From an uncultured Spirochaetaceae bacterium (GTDB lineage Bacteria; Spirochaetota; Spirochaetia; SZUA-6; DRHE01): DNA of 39,342 bases. Within the stretch, counting starts at the first letter, position 1; the number at the start of each line of letters is the position of its first letter. The notes beneath the pieces were generated by a model, which ran no database searches, was not told the DNA's origin, and saw only the letters and a program-made list of their open reading frames with translations. The stretch is from positions 1 to 39,342 of the forward strand of contig CAYMGP010000035.1 of the NCBI GenBank assembly GCA_964390045.1. The letters run 5' to 3'. The position numbers were made by a program, and so were the translations under genes. This document shows positions 1 through 29,900 of this stretch, in pieces.

Positions 1-1281
1 TTCTACTGGGAAATGCCGGTGCTGATCCAGCGGCTCTGCGGTATCTGTCCGGTCAGCCATCATCTGTGCGCCGCCAAGGCCACGGATGTGATCGTCGGGG
101 CCGACAAGATCCCCGTCACGGCGGAGAAGATGCGGCGCCTGATGCACTTCGGGCAGACCTTTCAGTCCCACGCCCTGCACTTCTTCCACCTCTGCTCTCC
201 TGACTTCCTGTTCGGATTCGATGCCGATCCGGCGATCCGCAATGTGATCGGAGTGGCAGAGAAGCACCCGGACCTGGCCAGGATGGCCATCCTGATGCGC
301 AAGTACGGCCAGGAGGTAATCAAGGCCACAGCGGGCAAGAAGATCCACGGCACCGGCGCGATTCCGGGCGGGATCAACAAAAACCTCACGATTGAAGAGC
401 GGGATTTTCTGAAGAAAGACGCAGACCAGATGGTCCAGTGGTCGATCGACGGCCTCGAGCTGTTCAAGAAGATACTGCATGAAAACCTCGAATACCTGGT
501 TAATTTCGCAGCCTTCGACTCCAACCATCTCAGCCTGGTGCGGGCCGACGGCTGTCTCGACATCTACGACGGGGTATTGAGAGCCAAGAGCGCCGACGGG
601 AAGATCATCTTCGATCAGGTTCAGCCCAAGGACTATCTCGAGTACATCCGCGAGGAGGTCCGGCCCTGGAGCTACATGAAGTTCCCCTTTATAACGAGCC
701 TGGGCATGGAGAAGGGCTGGTACCGCGTCGGACCGCTGGCCCGGATCAACAACTGCGATTTCATTGACACCCCGCTTGCGGAAAAGGAACGCCAGGAGCT
801 CATGAGTCTGACCGGCGGCAAGCCCAACAACTCCACGTTGGCCTATCACTGGGCGCGGCTGATCGAGGTGTTGTACTGCGCGGAAAAGATCAAGGAGCTG
901 CTGGACGACAAGGATCTTCAGGGCACGGACCTGGTCACCGAGGGTAAGCACCGGGACGAGGGCATTGCCATTCTCGAGGCGCCCCGGGGGACGTTGTTCC
1001 ATCACTACAGGATCAATGACACCGATCAGGTCACCATGGCCAACCTGATCGTCTCTACGACGAACAACAACGAGCCGATGAACCAGGCGGTGGAGTGGGT
1101 GGCCAGAAACGAGCTCGAGGGTCAGAAGATCACAGAAGGGCTGCTCAACCATGTGGAGGTGGCCATCAGGGCCTACGATCCCTGTCTGAGTTGCGCGACC
1201 CACGCCGTGGGACAGATGCCGTTGATCGTGCGATTGGAAGGACACGACGGCGATTTGATCCACGAGCGTATAAAGGAATAG
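1..1281 (+). CDS. [NiFe]-hydrogenase large subunit, 5' end outside window (group 3 / MvhA-like)
   Basis: The frame is open from the window edge. Near the N-terminus there is the RxCGxCxxxH nickel-site motif (RLCGICPVSHH). Near the C-terminus there is DPCLSCATH, followed by a tail of about 25 aa of the kind removed by the maturation protease. A protease gene lies immediately downstream. Confidence 0.85.
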   Translation, partial: FYWEMPVLIQRLCGICPVSHHLCAAKATDVIVGADKIPVTAEKMRRLMHFGQTFQSHALHFFHLCSPDFLFGFDADPAIRNVIGVAEKHPDLARMAILMRKYGQEVIKATAGKKIHGTGAIPGGINKNLTIEERDFLKKDADQMVQWSIDGLELFKKILHENLEYLVNFAAFDSNHLSLVRADGCLDIYDGVLRAKSADGKIIFDQVQPKDYLEYIREEVRPWSYMKFPFITSLGMEKGWYRVGPLARINNCDFIDTPLAEKERQELMSLTGGKPNNSTLAYHWARLIEVLYCAEKIKELLDDKDLQGTDLVTEGKHRDEGIAILEAPRGTLFHHYRINDTDQVTMANLIVSTTNNNEPMNQAVEWVARNELEGQKITEGLLNHVEVAIRAYDPCLSCATHAVGQMPLIVRLEGHDGDLIHERIKE

Positions 1282-1361: not shown

Positions 1362-2249
1362 TTGAAGGATAACAGCGGTGCGCCGAGCGGTGCGCCGAAC
1401 GGTGCGCCGAACGGTGCGCTGCGGATCTTGATCCTGGGCTACGGAAATCCGGGAAGGCAGGATGACGGCCTGGGTCCGGCGATAGTCGATGCGATAGAGC
1501 GGCTCGATTTGCCGGCGGTTGCGGTCGAAGCGGACTATCAGCTGGTCATCGAGCATGCGGCCGACCTGGCCGAGGCCGATGCGGTAGTATTCGTAGATGC
1601 AGCGGCCACAGGGCCCGAACCCTTTGAGGTGAAGCGGCTGGAGCCCTTGCTGGCGATCGAGTTTACGACCCACACGATTGGGCCGGAATCGGTGCTCGCC
1701 ATCTGCGAGGACACCTACGGGTGCAGGCCCGAAGCCTTGCTGGTGGCGGTCAGGGGCTACTCCTTCGAGTTCGCCGAAGGCCTCACAGAGGGGGCCCACC
1801 GGAACGAGAGCGAGGCTCTGGAGTTTATAAAACTACTTATCGATCAGTGGAGAGGGAAAAACATGGCAGGTGAAACCGGAAAAACGATCCTCATAATCGA
1901 CGACGATCCGGACATCCGCGCGGCTACGCGTATCGTCCTGGAGTCCGCAGGATTTGTCGTGGGTGAGGCTTCCACGGGGGAGGAAGGATTGAAAACGGCT
2001 CGCAAGATCAAGCCGGATGCCATCCTCCTGGACCTGATGATGGAAACCGTGGACGCGGGCAGCAAGGTCTCTACTCAGCTCAAGGACGCGGGCTTTGCGG
2101 CCCCGATATTCCTGCTGAGCTCCGTCGGAGATGCGGTGCGCTACAACATCGATGCGAAGGAGCTCGGTCTGGCCGGGATCTTTCAGAAGCCGATCGATCA
2201 TAAGACACTGCTGACGACCTTAAAAGCGGAGCTTGGTATCAAGGGCTGA
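1362..2249 (+). CDS. Hydrogenase maturation endopeptidase (HycI/HybD/FrhD family) fused in frame to a CheY-like receiver (REC) domain
   Basis: The protease core is LRILILGYGNPGRQDDGLGP ... FTTHTIGP, with the conserved GN..DDG metal site and a conserved His. The same frame continues with no stop into MAGETGKTILIIDDDPD ... ILLDLMM ... LLSSVGD ... FQKP, which is a complete REC domain with all conserved residues. The start is uncertain: TTG at about 1362 with GAGGCG upstream, or a CTG/TTG near 1419-1428. The longer ATG-initiated ORF from 1095 overlaps the hydrogenase 3' end and is unlikely. Confidence 0.55.
   Translation: MKDNSGAPSGAPNGAPNGALRILILGYGNPGRQDDGLGPAIVDAIERLDLPAVAVEADYQLVIEHAADLAEADAVVFVDAAATGPEPFEVKRLEPLLAIEFTTHTIGPESVLAICEDTYGCRPEALLVAVRGYSFEFAEGLTEGAHRNESEALEFIKLLIDQWRGKNMAGETGKTILIIDDDPDIRAATRIVLESAGFVVGEASTGEEGLKTARKIKPDAILLDLMMETVDAGSKVSTQLKDAGFAAPIFLLSSVGDAVRYNIDAKELGLAGIFQKPIDHKTLLTTLKAELGIKG
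1376..1423 (+). repeat. Tandem 12-nt repeat (R-CGGTGCGCCGA), about 3.7 copies, encoding (GAPS/GAPN)n
   Basis: Direct reading gives gcggtgcgccga / gcggtgcgccga / acggtgcgccga / acggtgcgctgc. Confidence 0.8.
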
Positions 2250-10321: not shown

Positions 10322-11137
10322 TCACCGCCGTGTGCGCCCCCTACCGGGGGCGGGAGTCAATGCTTGGGCCGTGTTGTAGCGCCTGGCCAAGCGCTGCAGA
10401 CAGGTGCTGCGGGATCGCTGGCAGGCGTCGTTCCAGCGGTCATAGTGGGCGAGGAACTCTGCGGCGGGCACAATGGTCAAACGCGATGAGGCAAAGAAGA
10501 TCCGCCTCCCGGGGTAGAGCACGAATCCCGCCTGGATGATATCCTGCGCCTGGGCGCGCTTGAGGTGGCTCCAACAGCGTCTTGAGTTCGGGCTCTGCGG
10601 AACAAAGATGAAACCGATACGTTTCGCTCCGGCCTCTACGATCAGCTCCACGTGCCTCTTGCCGTATCCTCCATGATAGAAGAATCTGCTGTCCGGACGC
10701 AGATCCCTTTCCATTCTGCAGATCGCGGCGATCATACGGGCCTGAAAGGGCAGTGCAGCGCGCGCAGCGCGTACAGCGCGCATAGCGCACACAGCAAGCT
10801 CCGGCGGGCGTCCCGGCGGCTGCGGCGAATCGGTAGCCGGGACGAAGTACAACTTGGGTGATTTGCAGGTGTGCCGCCGTTCACTGGGAAGAGGATCGAG
10901 AAGCCTGATGATTTCCGCTTCGGCCAGGCTGGAGACCCTTTTTTTCGCCGCGGATGCGGAAATACAGAGCTCCCTGCCCAGCGTGGCGTAGTTCAGGGGC
11001 TTTCCCTGCCAGGCTGATAAGACGGCTATGGTGGGCTGCAGCTCTTCCACACTAATAACAACGGACCTGTCGACAGCTTTGCTTTTAAGGCCATTGCGAG
11101 GTTGCGGATATCCGTATATGATTGAAGCAACCTGCAC
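10322..11137 (-). pseudogene. N-terminally truncated DUF4143-type AAA+ ATPase (COG1373) remnant
   Basis: Only the C-terminal DUF4143-like part is present (LNYATLGRELCISASAAKKRVSSLAEAEIIRLL, KSPKLYFVPATDS, FFYHGGYGKRHVELIVEAGAK). There is no P-loop/AAA part. The upstream space is occupied by the methyltransferase gene on the other strand. It has a GTG start and an odd low-complexity C-terminus. Confidence 0.45.
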
Positions 11138-13134
11138 GATCGGGAGAGGATGTCATTTCACGCCAGCGCCCCGCGATACAGGCCGAACTGCCGCTGATGT
11201 TTCCCGTTCTACCCCAGAACCGCAAATATCTCGGCTCCAAATTCCGGCTTCTAGATTTTCTCAAAGAGACGATCCTCTCGCGGGCCGGACGCTTCGAGGT
11301 ATTCGCCGACCTTTTTGCAGGCACCGGAATCGTGGGCAAATGTTTCAACAACCGCGACTGCAGAGTCATCGCCAATGACCTCCTGTACTCCAACTACGTG
11401 GTGAACAGGGCTTTTCTCACCTCCCGAGGCGACAACGTCGATCTCGAGAGGCTGGGCGATCTGACGCCTGAGCTCAACGCCAGCCCTCCGATCGAGGGCT
11501 ACGTTTTCCACAGCTACGGCGGTACCTATTTCAGCCGCGACAACGCGGCCAAGATCGACGCGGTTCGCCAAGCCATCGACCGTGTCTATGAAGCCGGACG
11601 CTGCAGCGAGCAGGAGCGGTATGTGCTGCTCGCCGGCCTGCTGCTCGCCGTGGACAAGGTGGCCAACACGGTTGGCCAGTATGACGCCTTCCTGAAGCAT
11701 ATCGACAGGGAGGATCTGAACAGTTCCGAAAGGCACCTGCGCGACAGCAATGTCGACAAGCCCCTCAGGCTGCTGCTGCCTGCGCTGGACATCGACGCGA
11801 ACGGCGGCAACGAGGTCTACAATACGGACGCCAATCTCCTGGTCCGCGACCTGGAGGCCGATGTCCTTTATCTCGATCCCCCCTATAACACGCGCCAGTA
11901 TGTGGACTGCTATCACGTCCTGGAGAATATCATGCGCTGGGAAAAGCCCAGGCTGTACGGAAAGACGAAGAAGTTTCAAAGGGACAACCTGAAGAGCCGC
12001 TTTTCCAGAAAAAGCGAGGCGTTCCAGGCTCTCTCGGAGCTAATCGAGGCGGCCCGGGCCGAGCACATCTTCCTGAGCTACAACAGCGAGGGGGTTATCG
12101 ACGCCGAGGCGATCGCCGGGATCTTCAGGGAGAAGGGAAGGTTGGAAGTATTTGAGAAGGAGTACCCCGTGTTCGGCAATGGGGCGGGCAGCTCCCGTAA
12201 GCGAACCGTGACGGAAAGGATTTTTTACTGCAGAAACGGGGGGGGCGGCGGCGGAAAACGCTCGCAGCAGAAGATCGAGCTGTTTACGGAGACGGGGGAA
12301 AGCCGGGGGTTTTACTCGCCGCGCAACCGCCTCAACGATCTTACGGGAAAAGAGTGGGTCTACTGGAGCAAGAGTGTCATCAACAAGCCCTATCCTCCCA
12401 ACCTGCAGCACAGCCTGCGCAGCCGTCACGGGGGCCAGAAACCTCCCGACCTGTGCGGAGATCTGATAGAGGTTTTCAGCAAACGCGGGCAGTGGGTTCT
12501 GGATCCCTTCGCCGGGGTGGGAGGAACCCTGCTCGGAGCCTCGCTGCGCGGCAGGCAGGCCCTGGGCATCGAGATCAATCCGGAGTGGATCGATATCTAC
12601 AGGCAGGTATGCTCTCTGGAAAAAATCGAGGAGCAGAGAACGATCTGCGGCGACAGTCGGGTCGAGCTCGATCGACTCGCCGCGAAGAACTGGCTCTGCG
12701 ACCTCATCCTTACAGATGTCCCCTTTTGGAGCATGGACAAGGCGAAACGGAGCAGGGGTGAGTTCAAGAGGGTGGGAGAACAGCAGCACAAACGGCGCCG
12801 CTCCAAGCTCGGCACCTTCAACGATACCACCTACGGCTCGAAGGAGCAGTGGCTCGCCGAGATGAAAGTAATTTTCGAAGCGGCATTGCCCCTTCTCAAA
12901 GACCGGGGGTATGTTGTTGTTTTCATAGGCGAGATGTACCAGGGCGGCCGCTATCATTTTCTCAGCGCCGAGCTGGGGTCCGTGCTCTCAGAGCTCGGGC
13001 TGACCGCCAAGGCCAACCTCGTCTGGTACGACGTGAGCAAATCCCTGCACATCTACGGCTACCAGTACGAGTACATTCCCTCGCTGATACACCAGAATAT
13101 CCTGGTGTACCGGAAAGACAGTACGAAGCTGTGA
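11122..13134 (+). CDS. Two-domain DNA methyltransferase: N-terminal Dam-like (D12 class) N6-adenine MTase and C-terminal N6/N4-type MTase domain
   Basis: The N-terminal domain has RKYLGSKFRLLDFL ... VFADLFAGTGIV ... LYLDPPYNTRQY (FxGxG before DPPY, the alpha-class order). The C-terminal domain has HGGQKPPDLCGDLIEVFSKRGQWVLDPFAGVGGTLLGA ... GIEINPEW ... LILTDVPF. The true start may be the internal ATG (MFPVLPQNRKYLGSKF). No endonuclease gene is adjacent. Confidence 0.8.
   Translation: MKQPARSGEDVISRQRPAIQAELPLMFPVLPQNRKYLGSKFRLLDFLKETILSRAGRFEVFADLFAGTGIVGKCFNNRDCRVIANDLLYSNYVVNRAFLTSRGDNVDLERLGDLTPELNASPPIEGYVFHSYGGTYFSRDNAAKIDAVRQAIDRVYEAGRCSEQERYVLLAGLLLAVDKVANTVGQYDAFLKHIDREDLNSSERHLRDSNVDKPLRLLLPALDIDANGGNEVYNTDANLLVRDLEADVLYLDPPYNTRQYVDCYHVLENIMRWEKPRLYGKTKKFQRDNLKSRFSRKSEAFQALSELIEAARAEHIFLSYNSEGVIDAEAIAGIFREKGRLEVFEKEYPVFGNGAGSSRKRTVTERIFYCRNGGGGGGKRSQQKIELFTETGESRGFYSPRNRLNDLTGKEWVYWSKSVINKPYPPNLQHSLRSRHGGQKPPDLCGDLIEVFSKRGQWVLDPFAGVGGTLLGASLRGRQALGIEINPEWIDIYRQVCSLEKIEEQRTICGDSRVELDRLAAKNWLCDLILTDVPFWSMDKAKRSRGEFKRVGEQQHKRRRSKLGTFNDTTYGSKEQWLAEMKVIFEAALPLLKDRGYVVVFIGEMYQGGRYHFLSAELGSVLSELGLTAKANLVWYDVSKSLHIYGYQYEYIPSLIHQNILVYRKDSTKL
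12237..12244 (+). repeat. Homopolymeric G8 tract, followed by (GGC)3, inside the MTase inter-domain linker (RNGGGGGGKR)
   Basis: Read directly: aacggggggggcggcggcgga. Confidence 0.85.
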
Positions 13135-13189: not shown

Positions 13190-14554
13190 ATGGCGGGAAT
13201 ATTCAAGACGTACGATATCCGGGGCATTTACGGCAAAGGTATAGATACAGCCCTGGCCTACAAGGTTGGCAGGGCTTTCTCCCGTTTCCTGAAGCAAGAT
13301 ACCTTCATGATCGGCTACGATGCCCGCACCTACTCCGAGGAGCTGTACCAGTCCGTCGGGCACGGTCTGGTGGCCGAGGGGAAAAAGGTTCTGGGCATCG
13401 GACTGGTGACCACCCCGCAGCTGCACTTCTACCAGATTAGAGAAGGGTACGGCGGTGCGGTCATGGTTACAGCCTCCCACAATCCTCCCGAATACCACGG
13501 TTTCAAGCTCTTCGACAGCCGGGGAGGCTCGATCAGCTTCGGCAAGGGACTCGAGCAGATCGAGAAGCTCGTTGCCGGAATGAGTGACGAGCCGCCCCTT
13601 AGGGGGGGTTCCATCGAAGAGGCCGACCGCCTCGAAGAATATCTAGATTTCGTTACCGGACCTCTGGAAGGCCGGACGGTGCACGGGGATGTCGTCATCG
13701 ATGTGGGCAGCGGTTCCGCCGGCAGGGTCTTTCGCAGCCTCAGCGAGAGATTGGGGATTCGCTGCCATATACTCAACGAGCAGCCCGACGGCTCTTTTCT
13801 CAACAGGGACCCGAATCCCCTCAAAGCGGAGAGCAGAGTGCATGCGGCGGCCAAGGTGCACGAGTACGGATCCGATCTGGGCGCTCTGCTAGATGGAGAC
13901 GGCGACAGGGTGGTCTTTCTCGATGAGCACGGTGAAAGTGTGGCCAACTACTACATAGCGGCGCTGATCGCCGAGCAGATCCTGGCAGGCGAGCCCGGGG
14001 CCGCTATCGTGTACGACTTGATCTCCTCCCGGGCGCTTCCCGAGCGTATCGAGGAATTGGGGGGCAAAGCGATCGTTTCCCGCGTGGGCTATACCCATCT
14101 CTACGACGCCATGGTCGCCGGGGGGGCTCTGTTTGGAGCCGAGACCTCGGGTCATGTGTATTTCAAGGTGACGGACAGCTATTACACGGAATCGGCGGCT
14201 TACGCGCTGGTCGTGCTGCTCAAGCTGCTCAACGAACGCGGCAAGCCCCTTTCCGAGCTCCTCGCGCCGCTGCGGCGGCGTTACTTTCAGTCGGAGGAGA
14301 TCAACGTGGAGATCGCAGACAAAGAAAGGGTTTTGCAGGAGATGGAGAGCCACTTCGCCTCCCTCGGAGGCAGGATCGAAAAGCTCGACGGCGTGAGCGT
14401 CGAGTTTGCCGACCACTGGTTCAATGTTCGTCCCAGCAACACGGAACCGCTGATCCGCCTGCGCTTGGAAGCCACAAGCCGGGAAACAGCGGAGAAGAAA
14501 TCCGCGGAAATAACCACTTTTTTGCAGGGTTGTGCCGCAAAAAACCGCCAATGA
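13190..14554 (+). CDS. Phosphomannomutase/phosphoglucomutase (alpha-D-phosphohexomutase family)
   Basis: Active-site loop TASHNPPEYHGFK. Four-domain length of 454 aa. GIYGKGIDTALAYKVGRAF at the N-terminus. Confidence 0.85.
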   Translation: MAGIFKTYDIRGIYGKGIDTALAYKVGRAFSRFLKQDTFMIGYDARTYSEELYQSVGHGLVAEGKKVLGIGLVTTPQLHFYQIREGYGGAVMVTASHNPPEYHGFKLFDSRGGSISFGKGLEQIEKLVAGMSDEPPLRGGSIEEADRLEEYLDFVTGPLEGRTVHGDVVIDVGSGSAGRVFRSLSERLGIRCHILNEQPDGSFLNRDPNPLKAESRVHAAAKVHEYGSDLGALLDGDGDRVVFLDEHGESVANYYIAALIAEQILAGEPGAAIVYDLISSRALPERIEELGGKAIVSRVGYTHLYDAMVAGGALFGAETSGHVYFKVTDSYYTESAAYALVVLLKLLNERGKPLSELLAPLRRRYFQSEEINVEIADKERVLQEMESHFASLGGRIEKLDGVSVEFADHWFNVRPSNTEPLIRLRLEATSRETAEKKSAEITTFLQGCAAKNRQ

Positions 14555-16524
14555 ACGATATCAACTTCGAGAACAGCTCGCAGAGCAACGATGAATCCCC
14601 TCGAAAGAACCCGGGCACGCCCGCCGTTCGCGAGCTCGAGCAGATACTTCAGGCCTCCCTCGAAGCTACGGCCGACGGGATCCTCGTGGTCGACAACAAT
14701 GGGCGGCTCATCCTCTCCAACGAGAGATTTGCCGAGATGTGGTGCATTCCCGAGCAGCTGATACAGGACAAGGACGATCTACGGATCCGCGAATACGTCA
14801 TGAATCATCTCGTCGATCCCGAAGCCTATATCGAGATGACCGAGCAGCTGTACGGCAGGGAGGATTCAGTAACAGACGAGGTGCGCTTCAAGGACGGCCG
14901 GACCTTCGAGCGCTTCTCCTCCCCCCTGATCATATCGGGAAAGATCGTTGGCCGGGTCTGGAGCTTCCGTGATACTACCACCATCCGAGAGACGCAGAGC
15001 CGTCTGGAGCGCAGCGAAGAGACGTACAGGGACTTAGTGGAAAACGCCAACAGCATCATTCTGCGCTGGGATTGTAGCGGCGTGATTTCGTTCATCAACG
15101 ATTACGGACAGCAGCTTCTAGGCTACAGTGCCGAGGATCTGGTCGGCAAGTCTATCATCGGTACGATCGTTCCCGAAAGAGAGTCCTCGGGGCGGGACCT
15201 GGTGGCCATGGTCGAAGGGATCACGAATAGGCCGGATGAGTTCCTATACAACGAGAACGAGAACACCACCAAGGACGGCCGATCTATTTGGGTTTCCTGG
15301 TCCAACAAGCCGATCTACGACACCGGCGGCCGGGTGGTCGAGATTTTGAGCATCGGGAATGACATCACCGAGCGCAAGAGACTGGAACAGCAGCTTTTTC
15401 AGGCACAGAAGATGGAAGCGGTAGGCCAGTTGGCGGGGGGCATCGCCCACGATTTCAACAACTTGCTCATGGTGATCAACGGCTACTGCGAGCTGCTGCT
15501 CGACGGGCCCGTCGTGGGCGATTCGGTGCGCCGGGATATCGAACTGATAAAGAATACCTCGGTACGGGCGGCGGCTCTGACCCGCCAGCTCCTCGCTTTC
15601 GGCCGCCGCCAGGTGGTTCAACCCAAGGTGATCGATCTCAACAGGCTCATGCAGGAAATGCTGGATATGGTGACCAAGCTCGTGGGGCCAACCGTGGTGC
15701 TCGATCTACGCGCCGCTCCCGGTCCCTTGAATATTTTCGCCGATCCGATTCAAGTAGAGCAGGTGCTTCTCAACCTTGCCGCCAATGCGAGGGACGCGAT
15801 GCCCGAAGGGGGAGAGCTTGTCCTGGAAACCCGTCAGGTGGATATAGACAGTGCAGGCAAGGGCGAGTTGTATATGGTCAAGACGGGACGGTACGCACTC
15901 TGCTCTGTAACGGATACGGGGACAGGAATTCCTCAGGAAATTCTGGAACATATCTTCGAGCCTTTTTTTACGACCAAGGAGTCGGGAAAGGGCACGGGCC
16001 TCGGCCTGTCCACGGTCTACGGGATCGTTAAGCAGAACGACGGCTACATTTTCGCTCGCAGCAAGCCCGGCGGGGGCAGCAGTTTCAGCGTGTATTTTCC
16101 TCTGGTCGTTGAAGAGGAGTTGATCCGGGGTGCGACAGCCAGGATTTCTGGAGAGAAGCTGCTGGGAAACGAGAGGATCCTTCTCGTAGAGGCGGAAGCC
16201 CAATTGCTTCGCTACACGAAGACGGTGCTCGAGCGTTACGGATACAGGGTGATTGCCGCCGAAAGCGCCGCCGATGCCCTGGCCCTGTGCAAAACGCTCG
16301 AGGGCAAGGTAGATCTCCTGATGACATCCGTGGGAATCGCCGAGACCGAGGACGGCGATCTGGCAGAGAAAATTAAAGAGATACAGCCCGATATACACGT
16401 GCTGCTCATCTCGGCGGCCAGCGGGGCGGAGCTTCCCGAGCGCTACTCGGCGATCAGGAAACCGTTCACCAGCGAAGCTCTGGCACGCAAGATTCGCTCG
16501 ATCTTAGACGACACGAGCGCTTGA
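14551..16524 (+). CDS. PAS-domain hybrid sensor histidine kinase with a degenerate C-terminal receiver
   Basis: Two PAS domains. H-box HDFNNLLMVINGYCELLL. HATPase N/G boxes (LNLAANARDAMPEGG, GTGLGLSTVYGIV). The C-terminal REC-like domain has the acidic pocket and acceptor altered (LLVEAEAQ; DLLMTSV). The start ATG overlaps the upstream stop (ATGA). Confidence 0.85.
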   Translation: MNDINFENSSQSNDESPRKNPGTPAVRELEQILQASLEATADGILVVDNNGRLILSNERFAEMWCIPEQLIQDKDDLRIREYVMNHLVDPEAYIEMTEQLYGREDSVTDEVRFKDGRTFERFSSPLIISGKIVGRVWSFRDTTTIRETQSRLERSEETYRDLVENANSIILRWDCSGVISFINDYGQQLLGYSAEDLVGKSIIGTIVPERESSGRDLVAMVEGITNRPDEFLYNENENTTKDGRSIWVSWSNKPIYDTGGRVVEILSIGNDITERKRLEQQLFQAQKMEAVGQLAGGIAHDFNNLLMVINGYCELLLDGPVVGDSVRRDIELIKNTSVRAAALTRQLLAFGRRQVVQPKVIDLNRLMQEMLDMVTKLVGPTVVLDLRAAPGPLNIFADPIQVEQVLLNLAANARDAMPEGGELVLETRQVDIDSAGKGELYMVKTGRYALCSVTDTGTGIPQEILEHIFEPFFTTKESGKGTGLGLSTVYGIVKQNDGYIFARSKPGGGSSFSVYFPLVVEEELIRGATARISGEKLLGNERILLVEAEAQLLRYTKTVLERYGYRVIAAESAADALALCKTLEGKVDLLMTSVGIAETEDGDLAEKIKEIQPDIHVLLISAASGAELPERYSAIRKPFTSEALARKIRSILDDTSA

Positions 16525-21509: not shown

Positions 21510-24500
21510 ATGAAGACTTGGACCAAGAGAGCCTCCATTACGATACTCCTTATAAGCGTATTACTGGCCGCCGTTAACTGTAAGAATCCGTTCACTCAGA
21601 TCGGCCTGGGCGACAAGGTCGATCTGGAGGTTCCGGACCTCGCCGTAACCAGCCACGGCAATGGAGGGTATGTCGGCGGGACAATTGCACTGACCGGTAC
21701 CTATGCCGACGACATCGATGTGGCGAGCATCCGAATTTCAATCGCCGGCGAGGCTTTCGCCGAGGCCACGGTCAACCCGAACAACACGTGGAGTTTCACA
21801 ATTGACACCACGACTTTTACAGATGGTGAAAAGGAGCTGGTCATTTTGGTAGAGGATTCCTCGGCAAAGGTGATCGAAAAACGCCTACTTCTGTTTTTCG
21901 ACAACAAGCCGCCCCTCGTGCTGGTCAGCGTTCCCTTCAACTACGACCCGGCCAACAACGCCTTCAACGGGACTTTCAGTATCAAGGGCGACGCCTACGA
22001 CGCCTTCGGGATCCAGGAGGTCACCGTCGAGCTGAGGGATATCACCGATCCGGCCAACAAGATCGTGGCCGCCGCGGCCGGCACAAACAGCTGGAGCGCG
22101 ACCTTCGACAGTACGACCCTCTCACCCCAGAACGGCGATTTCTACGTCATCGTCACGGCCAAAGACAAATCGGACAACGCCAACAGCTATGTTTTCCACT
22201 CCTACGACATCTACGATTGGTACGAGACCAATCATCCGAGCAATATAGAGACCGTTACGGTGGAACAGCTGTACAGCATGGACCAGGGCGTGGACGAGGG
22301 CCTTCTGCTGAAGCCCGCCGATCTGCCCGCCCTGCAGAAACTTCCGCCTGTCTCCGGATCGGAGCTGATAATCAAGATCGACCAGGCGGAAGACCTTCCC
22401 AAGTTTGTGATAAGCAACCCGGATGAGAACTCCTCCCCGGCCGAAAACATCATCGGGGCCAGCGCCAATGCCATCGGCATCGTGGAGGACGATGACGGGG
22501 TGAATCCGAGCACAATCGAGATCAGCATCGACGGAGGTGCCTGGGAGTCTCCCACCCAGATCATTCCGAACACGGGATATCCGCTCTCGGTTCGCTGGCA
22601 GTACGATTTGCCCGCTCTTAGCGAAGGGCTGCACGACATACAGGTGCGGGCTCAGGATATGTACGCGAAGTCGAGTTCCAGCCCGCTGGTGGGATTCACC
22701 ATCGATACAGGCGCCCCGGCCGTAGCGGTTGATACCCCGGATCAGGGCAGCTATCACAGCGGCGACTTCCTGATTACGGGAACGGCCTCCGATCCCCAGG
22801 GTGTGACCGAGGTGAAGGTCAGCACGGACGGGGGTAGCAGCTACAACGATGCCAACGGCCTGGGTTCCTGGGACTACCTGGTAACCGTGCCCGGCGACGG
22901 CTCGTGGGACGGGAACCAAACGATCAAGGTGCTGGCCAAGGACGGCTCGGGAAAAACGGCCTACACCAACCTGCAGGTTATTATCGACACGGAAGACCCG
23001 ATCGTGAGCTTCCTCACCCCGGGCAACTCCGCCACGGTGAACGGAGAGGTTTTACTCAAGGGGGTTTCTTCAGACAACACCCAGGTGAGCAAGGTTGAGC
23101 TCAAGATCGGCAAGGTTGATCCCTGGATCGAGATGAGCGGCACCTACAACTGGGAGTACACGATAGACAGCGTGAGCTACGCCAACGACACCCACTCCGA
23201 CCAAACCCCGCCGGCCAGCGGCGTCTGGAAGCTGAACATTCAGGCCCGGTCCACCGACGTGGCCGGCAACGTCACAGTGCTCGGCAACTACAACCTGTTC
23301 ATCGACAATGACATGGACAAGCCTACGGTCAACATCGTTTCTCCGGCCGACCTGCAGAACATAGGCGGTTCGGTGCTGGTCAACGGCACGGCCTTCGACG
23401 ACGATGCCGTGCAGAAGGTGCAGATGAAGCTCGATCTGGACAACGACGGACTGTTCACCAATCAATACAGCCTGAACGGAGACGCGGACTACGACGATCC
23501 GTTCGAAAAGGAAACCGAGTGGTACGATATCAGCGGGATCACCACCTGGACCCAGGAGCTGAACACGGCCGGCGAGCTCTACCAGACCGACGGCAACAAT
23601 GACGGCTGGATCACGGTGCGGGTGCGCGCGGTGGACATCAACACGGTGGAAGGCAATCCTCAGGAAATCAAGATCCACTTCGACGACACGATTCCCCGCT
23701 TCGAGAACATCAGCCACGCTTCGGGCGACTACGTCAAACAGACCTTCAACCTGACAGCCGATGTTCTGGACGACGTCGCGGTGGCCGATATCTACATCAG
23801 CTACGACGGCGGGGTAAACTACGACGATGTGCTCAACGATCCGAGCTACAGCGGGATGTTCAGCGTGATCCCCGACGGCTACCACATCGACATTCCCATC
23901 GACACCTCGGCGACCTCGAGCGGCATTCTCTACCTGCGCCTCAAGGTAGTGGACAATGCCAACTTCCAGAAACTGAACTACATCAACCTCAATGTTGATA
24001 ACGTATATCCAACAGGCGCCTATCCGGGCGACAGCATGGACATCTACGGCGCCGACATATTTTCCCGTGTTCAGGGCACGGCCGAAGATACGGGCAGCGT
24101 CAGCGGGATCGAGGAGATCCACGTCTACTTCGTCCGCGGCGCGAATGTTTACAATCCTCTGACCGGAGCGACAAGCGCCTGGGTACTCAATGACTTCGGT
24201 GTCGACGGCGGCGGAAATGCGCCGTACACGACGGATCCGAGCTTCAAGATCCTCATCGACAACCGCTACGAGCTCGGAGACGACAACGGCAGCTTCGGCG
24301 ATCTCGACGGTCACGACGAGTCCCTGACGGTCGGCGGATCGACGTACAACTGGTGGGCGGAGTTCGACTCCACCAAGATAAGCGACGGCACGATCGACAT
24401 CCACTATGTGGTCTTCGACAACGCCGGCAACGGACATCACTATCTGAAGCCCGGATTTATCAAGAACCACAAGCCCTCGATCACCTCACTGACGGTGGGC

Positions 24501-26906
24501 AGCGATGTGGACATGAGCAATGACGTTGAGGTTGATGAGCGGTTTCCATACGTGGGATCGTTTACAGCCCGCAACAAGATGTATATCGCGATCGTCGCCG
24601 ACGACAACAATCCTCCCGGCCTCAGCTACGAGATCATCCACAATCCGGCCGGCTATAACAACACGGTCTTTACGTCTTCCTCCGGGCAGTTCTTTATCAC
24701 CGCCTCGCCCGAGTACGATGACGGACCCACGGATTTCCTCTGCAGGGTCACGGACAGCGACGGCATCGTGGTGGAAACGACGATCCTGGCCACGATCGAG
24801 AACGAGGATGCAGTGGATCCGGCGGTAACCATCGAAGCCCTGGTGGACGGTGACGCCCCGACGGGACACATTGAGCTATACGACGACAGCCTGTTCGACG
24901 GTCCTCCGGACGCCGATGTCAGCGGCACGATCGTGCTGCACGGCACGGCAAGCGACAACCAGCGGATCCAGTCGATCCAGGTCAAGATTACGAATTTCGA
25001 CGCGGGCAATGGTCCGGGCAATTACCACCCAGTGGCCACCTGGTCCGGCGGCCATCTCGATGATTCCGGCGATGACAATTTCACCATCATCGACCCGGAG
25101 CTTTCCGAAGCGGTCGGGCACCAGATAAAATGGGAATACTCGTGGGATACGAGCGGGGTGACCAATTCGGCGGCCAAGAACATAAGCGTGGAGTTCAAGG
25201 TGACGGACTTCGCCGCGCCGGTGCGAACCAAAAGCGACACCAAGTACTACGACGTGGTGCCCTACATCGCCGCGGTTTCAACCCAGACGGGCGGAATCAA
25301 GGACGGCAACATCCGGGCCGCCTCCGGAAACTACTCGATCCGCCAGAACCTGGTAGACAACTCGGATCTGATTACCTTGACGGGCTACAACCTGCAGCCT
25401 ATCACCGGGGGTGTGCGCGTTTCCAGCGATCCCGATGGATTGGTCGGCACCACCCTGCAGGGAACCTCCCTTACGGTGGACAGCTCGGGCATACCCTGGG
25501 AGGTGCTGGTGGTGCGCAAGGACACCGATCGATCCGGGTACCTGACAGTTGTAGCCGGAACGGCCGCCGATCCGATTCCCAGCCTGAACAACGTCAACGA
25601 CAACTCGCAGAGCTACAATCAGGAACCGGACATCTACTCCAAGAACGATCTGCTGACCGACGACCGCTACCTGCGTCTGTTCGAGGTCACGGAAACGGGC
25701 TACGACAACGGCTACTATCCCGCCATGATCATGAACGGGGATAATCCCGTGTTCGCCTACTGCGAGGACAACAGCGGGGAAGCCCGCAGAAACGCTACGA
25801 CTATGGGCGAGGGGTGGTACCACAGGATGAGCGCCTTGACCCGCGACGGCGTGGACAACTACTATCAGGTTTCCGTGCACGACGCCTTCGGCAACAGCCG
25901 ACACGGCCACCTCAACATCTTCTACAACAACTACGGGGGGCGTATCTATCCCAACAACTGGCCGGAGTCGGCCGGGGACGGCAACAATGTCATCGCCCTG
26001 GACAACATCACGTACAGTGGTACCAAACTCAACCGCTTCCACTACCCGCGCTTGATCGCGGTGGGCGACGACACAAAAGCTCAGGTATATCTGAGCTACT
26101 ACGACGACGAACCGTCGATCGAGGATCTTATCATCCGCGTCTTCCAGATAGGCACCAACTGCGACGGCACCGAGCTGACCAATCTGGCCGCCGGCGTGGA
26201 CAGCAATCAGAACGAAGCCAACGGCGACGGAACCGCTCCAGGAAGGAACACGCTGGCCGGTTCGGCGAGCAAATACTTCGACATGGGGTTGACCTCGGGC
26301 GGGGACCTGGTCGTAGCCTACTACGACGAGATGGCCAATCGATTGAAGGTCACCTACAATGAGGATCCCGTCAACGCCTCCGGTCTGTACGGCGGAAGCT
26401 TTCCGATTCATACGAGCATGGACACGACGTACAACGGGGCCCACGTATCCCTGGCCGTGGACACCGCGGATCACATCCATATCGCCTACTACGATTCGGC
26501 CAGCGCCGATCTCAAGTACATCTACCTCGACAGCTACAACGACAGCACCCCGGACATCGCACGGGTCGATGCCTATCACTCGGTAGGCTTGTGGACCGAC
26601 ATCCAGGTCGATTCTTCGGGAATACCCTACATCGCCTATTACAACAACTCGGAGAACGGCACGGTGGATTCGATAAAACTGGCTTACTTCCTCGGCAGTC
26701 TGCCCACGGTCACCGACGGAGTGGACGGCTCGGGCAACATCACGGGGAACTGGGAATGTATGACCGTTCCCGTAACGGGTGTGCCCCGCGGCGGCCTGCC
26801 CCAGTTCAACAGGGTAAGTCTGGGCTTCGACGCCTCGGGCGATCCGCTGCTGGGCTACCTGGCCGATGATATCGAGTATTCGAGGATGCTTCCCGAGCTT
26901 CCCTAG
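21510..26906 (+). CDS. Giant (1798 aa) surface lipoprotein with many Ig-like (Big-type) repeat domains and a C-terminal repeat region
   Basis: Signal peptide plus a Cys (LLAAVNC). Recurring domain signature G[TA]xDdxxVxxVxv. The C-terminal approximately 200 aa contain repeated (I/V)AYYD ... LK(V/Y) strand-like units. Confidence 0.6.
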   Translation: MKTWTKRASITILLISVLLAAVNCKNPFTQIGLGDKVDLEVPDLAVTSHGNGGYVGGTIALTGTYADDIDVASIRISIAGEAFAEATVNPNNTWSFTIDTTTFTDGEKELVILVEDSSAKVIEKRLLLFFDNKPPLVLVSVPFNYDPANNAFNGTFSIKGDAYDAFGIQEVTVELRDITDPANKIVAAAAGTNSWSATFDSTTLSPQNGDFYVIVTAKDKSDNANSYVFHSYDIYDWYETNHPSNIETVTVEQLYSMDQGVDEGLLLKPADLPALQKLPPVSGSELIIKIDQAEDLPKFVISNPDENSSPAENIIGASANAIGIVEDDDGVNPSTIEISIDGGAWESPTQIIPNTGYPLSVRWQYDLPALSEGLHDIQVRAQDMYAKSSSSPLVGFTIDTGAPAVAVDTPDQGSYHSGDFLITGTASDPQGVTEVKVSTDGGSSYNDANGLGSWDYLVTVPGDGSWDGNQTIKVLAKDGSGKTAYTNLQVIIDTEDPIVSFLTPGNSATVNGEVLLKGVSSDNTQVSKVELKIGKVDPWIEMSGTYNWEYTIDSVSYANDTHSDQTPPASGVWKLNIQARSTDVAGNVTVLGNYNLFIDNDMDKPTVNIVSPADLQNIGGSVLVNGTAFDDDAVQKVQMKLDLDNDGLFTNQYSLNGDADYDDPFEKETEWYDISGITTWTQELNTAGELYQTDGNNDGWITVRVRAVDINTVEGNPQEIKIHFDDTIPRFENISHASGDYVKQTFNLTADVLDDVAVADIYISYDGGVNYDDVLNDPSYSGMFSVIPDGYHIDIPIDTSATSSGILYLRLKVVDNANFQKLNYINLNVDNVYPTGAYPGDSMDIYGADIFSRVQGTAEDTGSVSGIEEIHVYFVRGANVYNPLTGATSAWVLNDFGVDGGGNAPYTTDPSFKILIDNRYELGDDNGSFGDLDGHDESLTVGGSTYNWWAEFDSTKISDGTIDIHYVVFDNAGNGHHYLKPGFIKNHKPSITSLTVGSDVDMSNDVEVDERFPYVGSFTARNKMYIAIVADDNNPPGLSYEIIHNPAGYNNTVFTSSSGQFFITASPEYDDGPTDFLCRVTDSDGIVVETTILATIENEDAVDPAVTIEALVDGDAPTGHIELYDDSLFDGPPDADVSGTIVLHGTASDNQRIQSIQVKITNFDAGNGPGNYHPVATWSGGHLDDSGDDNFTIIDPELSEAVGHQIKWEYSWDTSGVTNSAAKNISVEFKVTDFAAPVRTKSDTKYYDVVPYIAAVSTQTGGIKDGNIRAASGNYSIRQNLVDNSDLITLTGYNLQPITGGVRVSSDPDGLVGTTLQGTSLTVDSSGIPWEVLVVRKDTDRSGYLTVVAGTAADPIPSLNNVNDNSQSYNQEPDIYSKNDLLTDDRYLRLFEVTETGYDNGYYPAMIMNGDNPVFAYCEDNSGEARRNATTMGEGWYHRMSALTRDGVDNYYQVSVHDAFGNSRHGHLNIFYNNYGGRIYPNNWPESAGDGNNVIALDNITYSGTKLNRFHYPRLIAVGDDTKAQVYLSYYDDEPSIEDLIIRVFQIGTNCDGTELTNLAAGVDSNQNEANGDGTAPGRNTLAGSASKYFDMGLTSGGDLVVAYYDEMANRLKVTYNEDPVNASGLYGGSFPIHTSMDTTYNGAHVSLAVDTADHIHIAYYDSASADLKYIYLDSYNDSTPDIARVDAYHSVGLWTDIQVDSSGIPYIAYYNNSENGTVDSIKLAYFLGSLPTVTDGVDGSGNITGNWECMTVPVTGVPRGGLPQFNRVSLGFDASGDPLLGYLADDIEYSRMLPELP

Positions 26907-26959
26907 AACAACCGGTTGGCGGATTGCATGATGGCTTTGCAGATTAGATAGGAGGCAGG

Positions 26960-29900
26960 ATGAAGCAGATCGCTATTGCAGCTCTTGTTTTTATTGCAGC
27001 GGCTTTCTGGGCGTTCGGACTTGGCGATCCCGAGGCGGGAGAATACGAAGCAGTCAACGGCTTGGAGAACTGGGACCACAGCATCGATATATCCGAATAC
27101 GAGGAGGGGAAGTACAACCTGATCATCCGCGGCACCGATGCGGCGGGAAACATCCAATACCAGGGTCCGTACAACGTATTCGTGGATCCGGCATCCGACC
27201 TGCCCGTGCTGCGTATTTCCAATCCGACGCCTGAAATGAGGGTGGGCGGCAGCCTCAATATAGTTGGCGCGAGCATCGATGACGACGGTGTACAAAGGGT
27301 TGAGATCCAGCTCGATGAGGGCGAGACCCGCACCGCGGAGGGCGCGGAGTTTTGGTCCCTTCGTCTCGATCTGGAGGGAATGGCCGACGGACGGCATACG
27401 ATCCGGGCCTGGGCGGTGGACGTCAACGGCAACGCCGGGGAGCCTCAGGAGGTCGCATTTCATCTCGACAGGCGGGCACCGCTGGTCGAGGTCGTCTCTC
27501 ACCAGAACAGCGCCCTGGTTTCCGGGACGGTTGTTCTCGAGGGTTACTTGCGCGACGCCAACGGCGTGAGCTCTCTGGCTTACAGCAGGCAGCGAGACGG
27601 TGCCTACGAGCCTCTCAAGATCTCCTACGATAAATCCGAGAAGCGATACAGCTTTGATTTGAAGATAGACACGGAAGAGCTGGTGGACGGTCCGCAAGTT
27701 TTCTGGTTTCGGGCCCAGGATACGACGGGATCAACAGCCTACCTGGCTTTCGCTCTGTTTGTAAACAATGAGAAGCCGCAGCTCGAGATCCTCTCACCGC
27801 AACAGGATAAAACCGTGAACGGCAGGATTCTGGTAGTGGGCAGGGCCCGCGACAGAATCGGCCTGAAATCCCTTTCCTACGATCTGGGTGGCGGGGAGAG
27901 CGGGGAGATCGAGCTGGTGCCTGGGAATCCTTTCTGGACCCAGGAGTTCGATTTGACGGGACGAAAGGCAGGAAACCTGCAGATAGCCTTCTCTTTAGAA
28001 AATCTGACAGGAGGAAGGAGCAACGAGAAACTCAAAGTCCGTCTGGATCCCGAATCGGACAGGCCGCGGGTTCTTTTCGCCGCACCGAAGCAGGACAGTG
28101 TTCAACCCGCGTCGTTCGAGGCCAGCGGCCACGTTCTCGATGACGACGGTGTACAGAGCATAGAAATCTCATTGGATGGATCAAATCCCAAGACAGTCTC
28201 TACAGAGGGTGCTTTCAGCGTCCCCTTTTCCGAGATCCCGGCGGGTCGCCATACTCTGATGGCTCGCGCAGTGGATATCCACGGGACGGCGGGCGAAGCG
28301 GCGGAACTCCAGTTCACAGTACGAGGAGAAAAACCTGTTATCGCCTTGACGGAGGTGAAAATCGCCGACGCCACGCACTCTTTTACCCCCGGTTTTCTCA
28401 TCGCTGCCGAACAAAAAGCAGCGCTCAGCGGCGAGATACGCTTTGCCGGGACCTCGATCAAGGCGGAGTACAGCCTGGGCGGCCGCGATTTCAAAGGATT
28501 GAGCCTGCGTAAGGCGGCGGAGGCGGACAGAAGGACTTTCGAAATCCCCCTGCCCAAGGATTTCGCTCCCGGCAGAGTCGATGTCCACATCCGTGCCACG
28601 GACGGCGTCGATGCGGCAGGAGAGTACAAAGGATTTGTTTTTCTGGGAAGCATCGAGGAGGCGCCCGCCGAGGTGATGTTCGTCGATGCCCGGATCGATG
28701 AGGAGGGCAGGGTTGCGCTGGACAGCGGACAGCCTCTGATCGGTTTCGTCCCCGGTTCGGTTGGCTCGGTCACGATCGAGCCGGAAACGGACCTGCTCCG
28801 GGTGAGTGCAGAAGGCTCGCTGGTGCGTATCGATGCGGTCAAGCCCGGGGTGAGCGAGCCCTTGAAGGTAAAGGCTGAGATCGGAAGTACCACGGTGAGC
28901 TCGGCGGCTCTGCGCTTCGTTACCGATGGTGAGCCTCCCGCAATGCAGGTCGCCCAGCCGGTAGTTGGATCTTGGTTGGGACAGAGCATGGTGCTCGAGG
29001 GAACGGTGAGCGATGCCAGCGGCGTTCGCAGCCTCGAATACACGCTCGGAGAAGATGAGTCTTTTACGGCGCTCGAGTTGAGCGCAACCGAGCCGGCAAC
29101 CAGCTTCTCAACGACAATTTCGTTGGGAGCGGTGGCTGAAGGGGCGTTTCTGTTCGTGTTAAGAGCCGTCGATCAGGCGGGCAATACAGCTATTGAGCGT
29201 ATACCCCTGTACAAAGACATCACCCGGCCGCTGCTGACCCTCGTCGCTCCGGGGACCGAGGATGAGCTCAATGGGTTGATTACTCTCGTCGGACAGGTAG
29301 AGGAGGAGGGAAGAATCGCAGCGGTGGAGTACAGCGAGGACGGCAGTACGTACAACAAGATTGCTGCATCCGGCGATTTTCACTTTGACATCAATCTGTC
29401 TCGATTCGAGTCCTTTCCGGAAAGCTTCGAGCTGCGCGCCGTGGACGCGGCGGGCAATGTCGGTACCCTGGTTCCGGCGCTTACCGTGAACAGAGAGGCT
29501 GACAAGCCGGTAGTCGAAATACAGATTCCCGGGGACGGTGAGGTGATCAAAAACGATTTTTTCATATCCGGAATGGTTTTTGACGACGATCAGGTCGCCG
29601 GGATTTCCTACAGCCTGGACGGCGGCGAGTTTCAGGACCTGCCGCCCGGCAACAACTTCACGGTCCCCCTTTCCATCGAGAGCATCAGCGACAATGAGCA
29701 TGTCATCGAGGTACGGGCCCAGGATAGCGGCGGACTTGCCGGCGATGTAGTATCCTCGACCTTCCTTGTCTCGACCTCGGAGCCCGAATCCACCCTGCTC
29801 AGCCCGGGCATCGACCAGCATGTCCGCGGCGTGATAGAGCTTTCAGGAGAGAGCGAAGATCCAAACGGTATCGATACAGTTTTTATATCCTTCGACAATG

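Follow-up and report, generated by a model that had tools for sequence, protein, structure and literature searches.

The contig CAYMGP010000035.1 of an uncultured Spirochaetaceae bacterium, whose 39,342 nucleotides we call the window, carries at positions 1362-2249 of the forward strand a single open reading frame (ORF) in which a hydrogenase maturation protease of the HoxW type is joined to a receiver (REC) domain of two-component systems. This gene is a genuine and conserved in-frame hoxW-REC fusion. The initial annotation of the window had put forward such a fusion as one of three possible descriptions of the gene, and this description holds, as the same junction is found in 34 species-level genomes and in at least 120 protein clusters. 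The hoxW-REC arrangement is real, conserved and unstudied, and all the carriers found are uncultured; full-text literature searches returned no description of a protease-receiver fusion or pair, generic mentions only. The gene comprises the following features:

1362-2249, forward strand: fused hoxW::REC ORF of 295 amino acids, with a TTG start and its stop codon at 2247-2249
1376-1419, forward strand: 12-nt tandem repeat coding for GAP[S/N], 3.7 copies, within the disordered N-terminal tail
1422-1862, forward strand: HoxW/HybD-type endopeptidase domain, amino acids 21-167, from the TIGR00072 profile and the alignment to HybD
1464-1466, 1596-1598 and 1671-1673, forward strand: codons of the predicted protease metal ligands D35, D79 and H104, respectively
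1821-1895, forward strand: internal initiation-like region with A/T-rich synonymous sites and weak mRNA structure, from the GC content at third codon positions (GC3) and the folding energy
1849-1856, forward strand: Shine-Dalgarno (SD)-like sequence GGAGAGGG, 6 nt before ATG 1863, with an anti-SD duplex of -7.2 kcal/mol
1863-2249, forward strand: receiver reading frame from Met168, 128 amino acids (PF00072), beginning at the codon with which split relatives start their separate REC gene
2031-2033, 2118-2120 and 2187-2189, forward strand: receiver key codons for the acceptor D224, S253 and K276, respectively

Judged from sequence, both domains are ordinary, intact members of their families with all catalytic and phospho-acceptor residues. 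The NCBIfam model TIGR00072 ("hydrogenase maturation protease") matches amino acids 23-157 with 82.2 bits (cutoff 47.45; model positions 1-142 of 145), and Pfam HycI (PF01750) alone falls below its cutoff (18.3 vs 23 bits). The Pfam model Response_reg (PF00072) matches amino acids 176-287 with 70.6 bits (cutoff 30.2; model positions 1-110 of 111). In an alignment of 75 homologues, the invariant protease residues are G28, N29, P30, G31, R32, D34, D35 and G38, the motif reading GNPGRQDDG in this ORF, together with D79 and H104; D35, D79 and H104 align onto the metal ligands E16, D62 and H93 of Escherichia coli HybD (1cfz). Similarly, D180-D182, D224 (in DLMME), S253 and K276-P277 of the receiver are invariant in the 75 sequences, and this pocket (D181/D182 plus D180, D224, S253 and K276) matches the D12/D13, D57, T87 and K109 set of CheY. 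The initial annotation had thus correctly recognized a protease core with a GN..DDG metal site and a conserved His, running with no stop codon into an intact REC with its acidic pocket, DLMM aspartate, Ser and Lys, and the alignment to protease and CheY-type profiles that it had proposed places both domains above curated cutoffs.

AlphaFold2 models the whole protein as two confident domains, with a mean predicted local distance difference test (pLDDT) of 87 and values >90 across the protease domain. Amino acids 1-16 are modelled as a disordered tail (pLDDT <50), and the two domains are separated by a linker of about 13 amino acids (161-173) that is also disordered, residues 167-169 having a pLDDT <50. 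In Foldseek searches, the N-terminal domain retrieved 5zby (HycI), 5ttx and 1cfz (HybD) with E values of about 1e-9 to 1e-10, a template modelling (TM) score to target of 0.69 and a probability of 1.0. The receiver part, predicted to consist of five strands alternating with helices in a (beta-alpha)5 fold, reached TM scores to target of 0.85-0.92 against solved receivers. No solved chain retrieved by Foldseek spans both domains, the best TM score to the query being 0.40.

The gene call for this ORF is also present in JGI as P0001. The tandem repeat close to the 5' end (1376-1419; unit CGGTGCGCCGAA, 96% matches), which encodes GAPS/GAPN, is missing from the 96%-identical homologue P0002. The protease lacks an ATG start, and in-frame TTGs at 1296 and 1428 are alternatives to the called TTG 1362. 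A promoter and terminator scan of 1200-2800 found nothing above chance inside the gene.

The fusion is widespread. A protein search covered 5.8 billion proteins, of which the best 120 clusters at 90% identity were listed, hence at least 120 fused clusters exist; they are 56-100% identical to the window protein over about 92% of its length and measure 255-299 amino acids, except for one fragment of 219 amino acids. Where named, the source annotation of these clusters is "hydrogenase maturation protease", and the precomputed Pfam assignment usually lists the receiver alone. The case bears on the annotation of fusion genes.

A genome scan with one genome per species recovered 53 related loci, all in metagenome-assembled genomes (MAGs). 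They belong mostly to the Spirochaetota (Spirochaetaceae), and also to Nitrospirales, Hydrogenedentota and Acidobacteriota, with one alphaproteobacterium. Where protease and REC are adjacent, they are fused in 34 of 48 species-level genomes and split in the other 14; the fused carriers are Spirochaetota, Nitrospirales and Hydrogenedentota, all MAGs. The search for the same fusion in other genomes, suggested by the initial annotation, was thus rewarded with 34 of 48 loci fused beside hox genes. The closest relatives (72-96% identity) are fused in the same frame with near-identical junction nucleotides, and the junction is identical in L002, L005 and L007. A sequencing error hiding a stop codon, which the initial annotation had considered, is refuted by this in-frame junction recurring across independent assemblies and by the frame shared with the closest relatives. 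The initial annotation had also stated that it would be refuted if close homologues all consisted of two separate genes; this is not the case, as these relatives are fused.

In clusters at 50% identity (1.84 billion representatives, queried with the whole fusion), only P0121 covers both domains; since a single representative is left, the fused family forms one compact clade. The protein P0177 (251 amino acids) was considered as an independent protease-REC fusion family and rejected, as it is a tandem REC-REC of the same REC subfamily (MME..D.G, QKPID). Both receivers of P0177 carry Arg in place of the acceptor Asp (LVRLMME / LVRLIME) and are therefore likely pseudo-receivers.

The split relatives inform on how the fusion came about. 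By tblastn, protease and REC lie in different frames at 12 loci, the switch occurring at query residues 139-170 or at a short intergenic gap; L029 harbors an in-frame TGA two codons ahead of the REC ATG, and L038 was also scored as split, L038 and L042 being less certain as they look degenerate. The split junctions consist of stop/start overlaps of 34, 17, 11 or 8 nt or of gaps of 3, 4, 10, 40 or 102 nt. All split loci break exactly at the fusion junction, the REC gene starting at the ATG equivalent to Met168, and several of these geometries repeat in independent assemblies (for example L039, L040 and L041). In a neighbour-joining tree the split loci are scattered, and Fitch parsimony counts 11 state changes (8-11 across 30 column resamplings). 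More distant pairs, with a protease identity of 40-47%, are also split: in L063 the two genes overlap at GTGA and a convergent kinase comes next, and in L062 a 52-nt spacer with AGGAG separates them. Because these distant pairs are split as well, a separate, translationally coupled pair of hoxW and REC genes is probably ancestral, and fusion would be easy and reversible. The fusion itself is not recent, since it is clade-wide down to about 55% identity and since fused and split states have interchanged 8-11 times.

A short homopolymer at the junction provides a possible route between the two states. If the run at 1857-1861 were longer by one A, the protease would terminate at the TGA 1871-1873 of the +1 frame and overlap the REC gene by 11 nt; the close relative L036 (8421-8450) indeed has a run of A6 compared to A5 in the window, with such an 11-nt overlap, and the same overlap is found in L037. 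This run could be a mutational toggle between the fused and the split form. Programmed frameshifting at the run was rejected, as GGG AAA AAC is out of the X XXY YYZ register and the fused form needs no shift. The TAA that the initial annotation had placed in the +1 frame near 1825 is read at 1828-1830. Two observations on individual loci and proteins may be added. The MAG MFD04492.bin.2.86 contains two copies, L028, fused behind a complete hox operon, and L042, split with a 40-nt gap next to a partial hoxH and with no match to hoxEF, hoxU or hoxY; L042 may be a decaying duplicate or an artefact of binning or assembly. Little context is available for P0144 and P0187, which represent stand-alone RECs, as their contigs are short.

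The fused genes retain at their junction what resembles the start of a gene. As the initial annotation had noticed, the strong SD GGAGAGGG at 1849-1856 lies 6 nt before ATG 1863 and the junction is low in GC and spacer-like, GC3 over the 14 upstream codons being 0.43 vs 0.73 in the gene, that is, the 1st percentile; over the 10 downstream codons it is 0.40. Across fused genes, the mean GC3 at the junction is 0.48 upstream (14 codons) and 0.46 downstream (10 codons) for a gene mean of 0.68. Once corrected for the codon usage of each amino acid, the deficit in the fused genes amounts to -0.25 upstream as well as downstream of the ATG, compared to -0.01 in the rest of these genes, and in the window gene to -0.41 upstream and -0.38 downstream; it is negative upstream in 30 of 34 loci and downstream in 32 of 34.

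Similarly, the mRNA is weakly folded at this place. The folding energy over 60 nt averages -7.8 kcal/mol at the junction ATG of fused genes, compared to -17.1 kcal/mol elsewhere in the genes (mean z +2.3) and to -6.0 to -9.2 kcal/mol at true starts; in the window the values are -7.9 kcal/mol at the junction vs -19.1 +/- 4.3 kcal/mol elsewhere in the gene. The mean energy of the SD/anti-SD duplex is -8.2 kcal/mol in fused and -8.6 kcal/mol in split loci, -8.4 to -9.5 kcal/mol at the true starts of hoxY, hoxH and hoxU, and -4.0 kcal/mol in the background. A comparable combination of SD and weak structure is found at 47-85% of junction ATGs vs 0.6-2.2% of 1010 other internal in-frame ATGs of hox genes. 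The boundary between the HoxE and HoxF domains, an older fusion that was taken as control, shows no such start-like relaxation. Finally, Met168 is retained in 114 of 115 fused sequences despite variable neighbours and a variable linker length, and it is located in the disordered linker (pLDDT <50).

These synonymous-site patterns are the standard signature of a used ribosome-binding site, and we strongly infer that the fused gene keeps a functional one. Two products, HoxW-REC and free REC, are thus probably made from it. The TTG 1362 start has a weak SD (-5.9 kcal/mol) and a structured mRNA (-18.8 kcal/mol), so that ATG 1863 is by both measures a much better initiation site; that free REC is more abundant than HoxW-REC is speculation drawn from these features. 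The second description offered by the initial annotation, a recent fusion by stop-codon loss from which both products are still made, agrees best with the evidence, though only in part: the split relatives and the start signature support it, and its recency is contradicted by the clade-wide distribution.

The gene lies directly behind a hydrogenase large-subunit gene, from which it is separated by 80 nt:

1-1281, forward strand: 3' part of hoxH, encoding the [NiFe]-hydrogenase large subunit (PF00374, 106 bits); the window starts inside the gene
1204-1278, forward strand: C-terminal extension of HoxH, 25 amino acids, AVGQMPLIVRLEGHDGDLIHERIKE, directly after DPCLSCATH; the expected protease substrate tail, read from the translation

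Proteases of the HoxW/HybD family (peptidase A31) cleave after the His or Arg of DPCxxCxx[HR]. The remainder of the operon is seen in a separately recorded contig, L055 (JGI Ga0309839_1002073), in which 1362-2249 is identical and other parts differ from the window, with five substitutions in hoxH (774-807) and indels from 2961 onward. In L055, a full operon consists of hoxEF (fused 2Fe-2S_thioredx and Complex1_51K), hoxU (Fer2/NADH-G), hoxY (Oxidored_q6) and hoxH (PF27537), followed by hoxW::REC, and the same five-gene order is found in every related locus with enough flank. Because this identical-copy contig calls a PF27537 HoxH after hoxEF-hoxU-hoxY, the hydrogenase is, on its gene content, a Hox-type bidirectional enzyme, group 3d-like, and the protease a HoxW and not a partner of Mvh or Frh. 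The initial annotation was right to see a [NiFe] large subunit in the neighbouring gene, as PF00374 and the tail after DPCLSCATH confirm, and of the mvhA/hox-like genes that it had named as neighbours to look for, the Hox type is the one that applies. There are no hyp genes in the rest of the window, the remainder being housekeeping. The closest histidine kinase gene, coding for a hybrid PAS kinase, lies 13 kb away at 14530-16524.

Candidate kinases are found in the relatives, where histidine kinases adjoin the locus in at least 14 cases, with PAS, GAF, HAMP or PilS-like membrane domains as sensors. At three Nitrospirales loci, a divergent kinase combines ferredoxin-like and [FeFe]-hydrogenase H-cluster-like domains with kinase domains (Fe_hyd_lg_C + HisKA + HATPase_c; L058 2131-4149 on the reverse strand, L014 1117-3132, L020 776-2755), next to which a REC-HisKA-HATPase protein is encoded. 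This kinase is a candidate H2 or redox sensor that might feed the HoxW-linked REC, the suggestion of H2 or redox state as the signal in Nitrospirales being based on the [FeFe]-hydrogenase-like sensor that it carries.

The explanation that we favour, and which we consider rather probable, is that hoxW was joined to a downstream single-domain response-regulator gene, that the internal start was kept and that REC provides an input on maturation. The gene is a hoxW, coding for the endopeptidase expected to trim the HoxH tail once nickel has been inserted, and it is joined in frame to the single-domain response-regulator gene that follows it directly in hox operons of this group; a functional internal ribosome-binding site would be retained (SD 1849-1856, ATG 1863 and unstructured A/T-rich mRNA). 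Owing to the weak TTG start, the gene would then yield little HoxW-REC, next to the free REC of 128 amino acids. REC would receive a phosphoryl group on D224 from a histidine kinase whose gene adjoins the locus in many relatives and presumably lies elsewhere in the source organism. Since its phosphorylation residues are complete and it has no output domain, REC should act through protein contacts. The specific proposal that REC or phosphorylated REC acts by such contact on HoxW or pre-HoxH, gating maturation, is advanced tentatively, as a possibility short of probable. The final, irreversible step of hydrogenase maturation would in that case be gated by a redox or H2 signal, and the covalent link would be one way to hold together partners that also work as separate proteins. 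The conserved coupling and repeated fusion of the two genes fit a physical partnership of REC with HoxW or pre-HoxH, and phospho-control of HoxH maturation is a plausible hypothesis. The more general proposition, that two-component signalling gates [NiFe]-hydrogenase maturation post-translationally, phospho-REC permitting or blocking the cleavage of the HoxH tail and an [FeFe]-like sensor acting in some lineages, is one that we regard as rather unlikely in this full form. If it is true, cells could keep a pool of nickel-loaded, unprocessed hydrogenase and switch it on upon a signal, and a physical partnership would have left its genomic trace in the way hoxW and REC have repeatedly fused and separated.

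Several observations weigh against a REC input on the protease or against an internal start. AlphaFold2 docks the two domains in no fixed way and predicts no interface; a predicted TM score (pTM) of only 0.60 and the low-confidence linker are at the origin of this statement. No kinase is found within about 10 kb of the locus in the window or in the closest relatives. In two distant relatives the orthologous REC is placed differently: at L049, REC forms with a GAF-kinase an operon on the other strand, and at L050 it lies upstream of hoxEF, so that in both cases it is hox-linked and does not adjoin the protease; L051 has a protease with no REC nearby. Frequent fission means that the covalent linkage is not needed, and some split calls could be assembly indels, since all the genomes are MAGs. 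Regarding the internal start, synonymous reshuffling of the 7 codons before the ATG gave a null of -6.5 vs -8.2 observed (median p 0.35), and most of the SD-like sequence follows from the residues that it encodes, W-R/K-G/E. As the reshuffling is not significant, the SD alone was not taken as proof and the GC3 and folding tests were used.

Since REC in L049 and L050 is hox-linked and apart from the protease, REC may act on the hydrogenase or on hydrogenase expression instead of on the protease. That REC regulates the protease step seems to us possible at somewhat less than an even chance, and a different hox-related target somewhat unlikely. In its developed form, which we also hold to be rather doubtful, this alternative makes REC a hox-linked single-domain regulator of the Hox enzyme or its diaphorase, or a component of a phosphorelay or phosphate sink towards transcription; REC would sit after hoxW merely since hoxW ends the operon, and fusions would be neutral, arising from trivial indels at overlapping stop and start codons. 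The 8-11 fusion or fission events and the absence of interdomain docking agree with such a view, as do the retained internal start, which implies that free REC matters, and the stronger conservation of REC than of the protease (e.g., 86-87% vs 60-65% identity in L039-L041). On the contrary, protease and REC stay adjacent and translationally coupled in at least four phyla, even where protease identity drops to 40%, the vicinity of the locus has no consistent DNA-binding regulator, and the persistence of the fused state in 34 of 48 genomes indicates that permanent tethering of REC does not preclude function, as would be expected of partners.

It may also be asked whether the full-length fusion is the only product, the protein being an enzyme-output regulator in reversed order whose protease is switched allosterically by REC phosphorylation, with Met168 and the SD as leftovers or with a role at the protein level. 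Such an arrangement would account for the uninterrupted ORF conserved in 34 species and the short linker of about 13 amino acids, and the SD is mostly accounted for by amino-acid choice; it is nevertheless quite improbable, as the GC3 deficit and the loss of structure fall exactly at the ATG, like at true starts, and are absent from the HoxE/HoxF boundary and from other internal ATGs. Moreover, Met168 is nearly invariant within a disordered linker of variable length, and split relatives function without a tether. An error of sequencing or assembly that masks a stop codon or a frameshift, or a stop codon lost very recently in this lineage alone, could be imagined because one added A at 1857-1861 would split the gene and L036 has that A. 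This we consider extremely improbable, given the junction identical in L002, L005 and L007, the frame common to all 72-96% relatives, the identical gene in a second contig that differs elsewhere and a fused state common to several phyla.

The favoured combination of a HoxW, a REC and an internal start can be compared to known systems. HoxW is reportedly the C-terminal processing endopeptidase of the NAD-linked [NiFe] hydrogenase of Cupriavidus necator (Thiemermann et al. 1996, J Bacteriol 178:2368, cited in PMC5513912), and the HoxW of bidirectional [NiFe] hydrogenases is also found in cyanobacteria; to our knowledge, the described HoxW proteins are stand-alone and measure about 150-180 amino acids. 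The window protein resembles them by its TIGR00072 superfamily, its position after hoxH in a hoxEFUYH-type operon, its three metal-ligand residues and the HoxH tail after DPCxxCxxH, whereas it differs by its receiver, which is a coupled separate REC in split relatives, and by the internal start at the junction. With E. coli HybD and HycI (1cfz, 2kml) and with Thermococcus HycI 5zby and 5ttx it shares the fold and the ligands aligned with HybD E16/D62/H93, although the sequence identity is just 22-26%.

Single-domain response regulators act through protein-protein contact, and CpdR and RssB connect phosphorylation to proteolysis. Like CheY, Spo0F, DivK and CpdR, the REC described here is a (beta-alpha)5 receiver that lacks a DNA-binding output and has the DD pocket, acceptor Asp, Ser/Thr and Lys-Pro; unlike theirs, which include a motor, a kinase and ClpXP, its putative partner is a metalloenzyme maturation endopeptidase. 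Its sequence places it in a distinct REC subfamily (DLMMETVDAG...SSVGD.VRYN...GIFQKPID) for which no NCBIfam equivalog model reaches its cutoff. In CheB, PleD and RpfG a receiver is similarly joined covalently to an enzyme domain; here, however, REC occupies the C-terminal end instead of the N-terminal one, the link can be dispensed with (14 of 48 relatives are split), and free REC is probably produced as well. The protein departs from the layout of a classical REC-effector response regulator.

The HoxBC-HoxJ-HoxA and HupUV-HupT-HupR systems exert an H2-sensing two-component control of hydrogenase genes that ends in an NtrC-type transcription factor. As in HoxJ/HoxA and HupT/HupR, two-component parts appear to be dedicated to a hydrogenase, and some relatives pair the locus with a kinase bearing a hydrogenase-like sensor. 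On the contrary, the receiver described here has no DNA-binding domain and is attached to a maturation protease, and the Nitrospirales sensor is [FeFe]-like and not of the group 2b [NiFe] type. Genes such as cheA (long and short forms), clpB and infB yield a full-length and a C-terminal product from an internal in-frame SD and ATG. The fused gene likewise harbors an SD plus ATG inside its ORF, but its internal start was once the start codon of a gene of its own, as it still is in other genomes, and has been retained.

As far as we know, control of [NiFe] hydrogenases has been described at transcription and cofactor supply, and the final proteolysis is regarded as following from nickel insertion without regulation of its own. 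That several uncultured phyla have a phosphorylatable receiver fused or translationally coupled to the maturation protease suggests that a signal enters at this final proteolytic step or close to it. The locus would tie two-component signalling to hydrogenase maturation and offers a concrete protein pair, with candidate kinases in relatives. It also represents a clean natural example of a gene pair that repeatedly flips between fused and split while keeping an internal ribosome-binding site.

Elsewhere in the window, two adjacent giant ORFs at 21510-26906 (1798 amino acids) and 26960-31612 (1550 amino acids) contain the bacterial Ig-like repeats Big_7, Big_13 and Big_3_3; to judge from these repeats, the ORFs of 21510-31612 probably encode surface proteins. 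At 11122-13134, a single ORF of 670 amino acids combines D12-class N6-adenine methylase and N6_N4 methylase domains, for which L055 calls two overlapping genes, and this may be another fusion/split difference.

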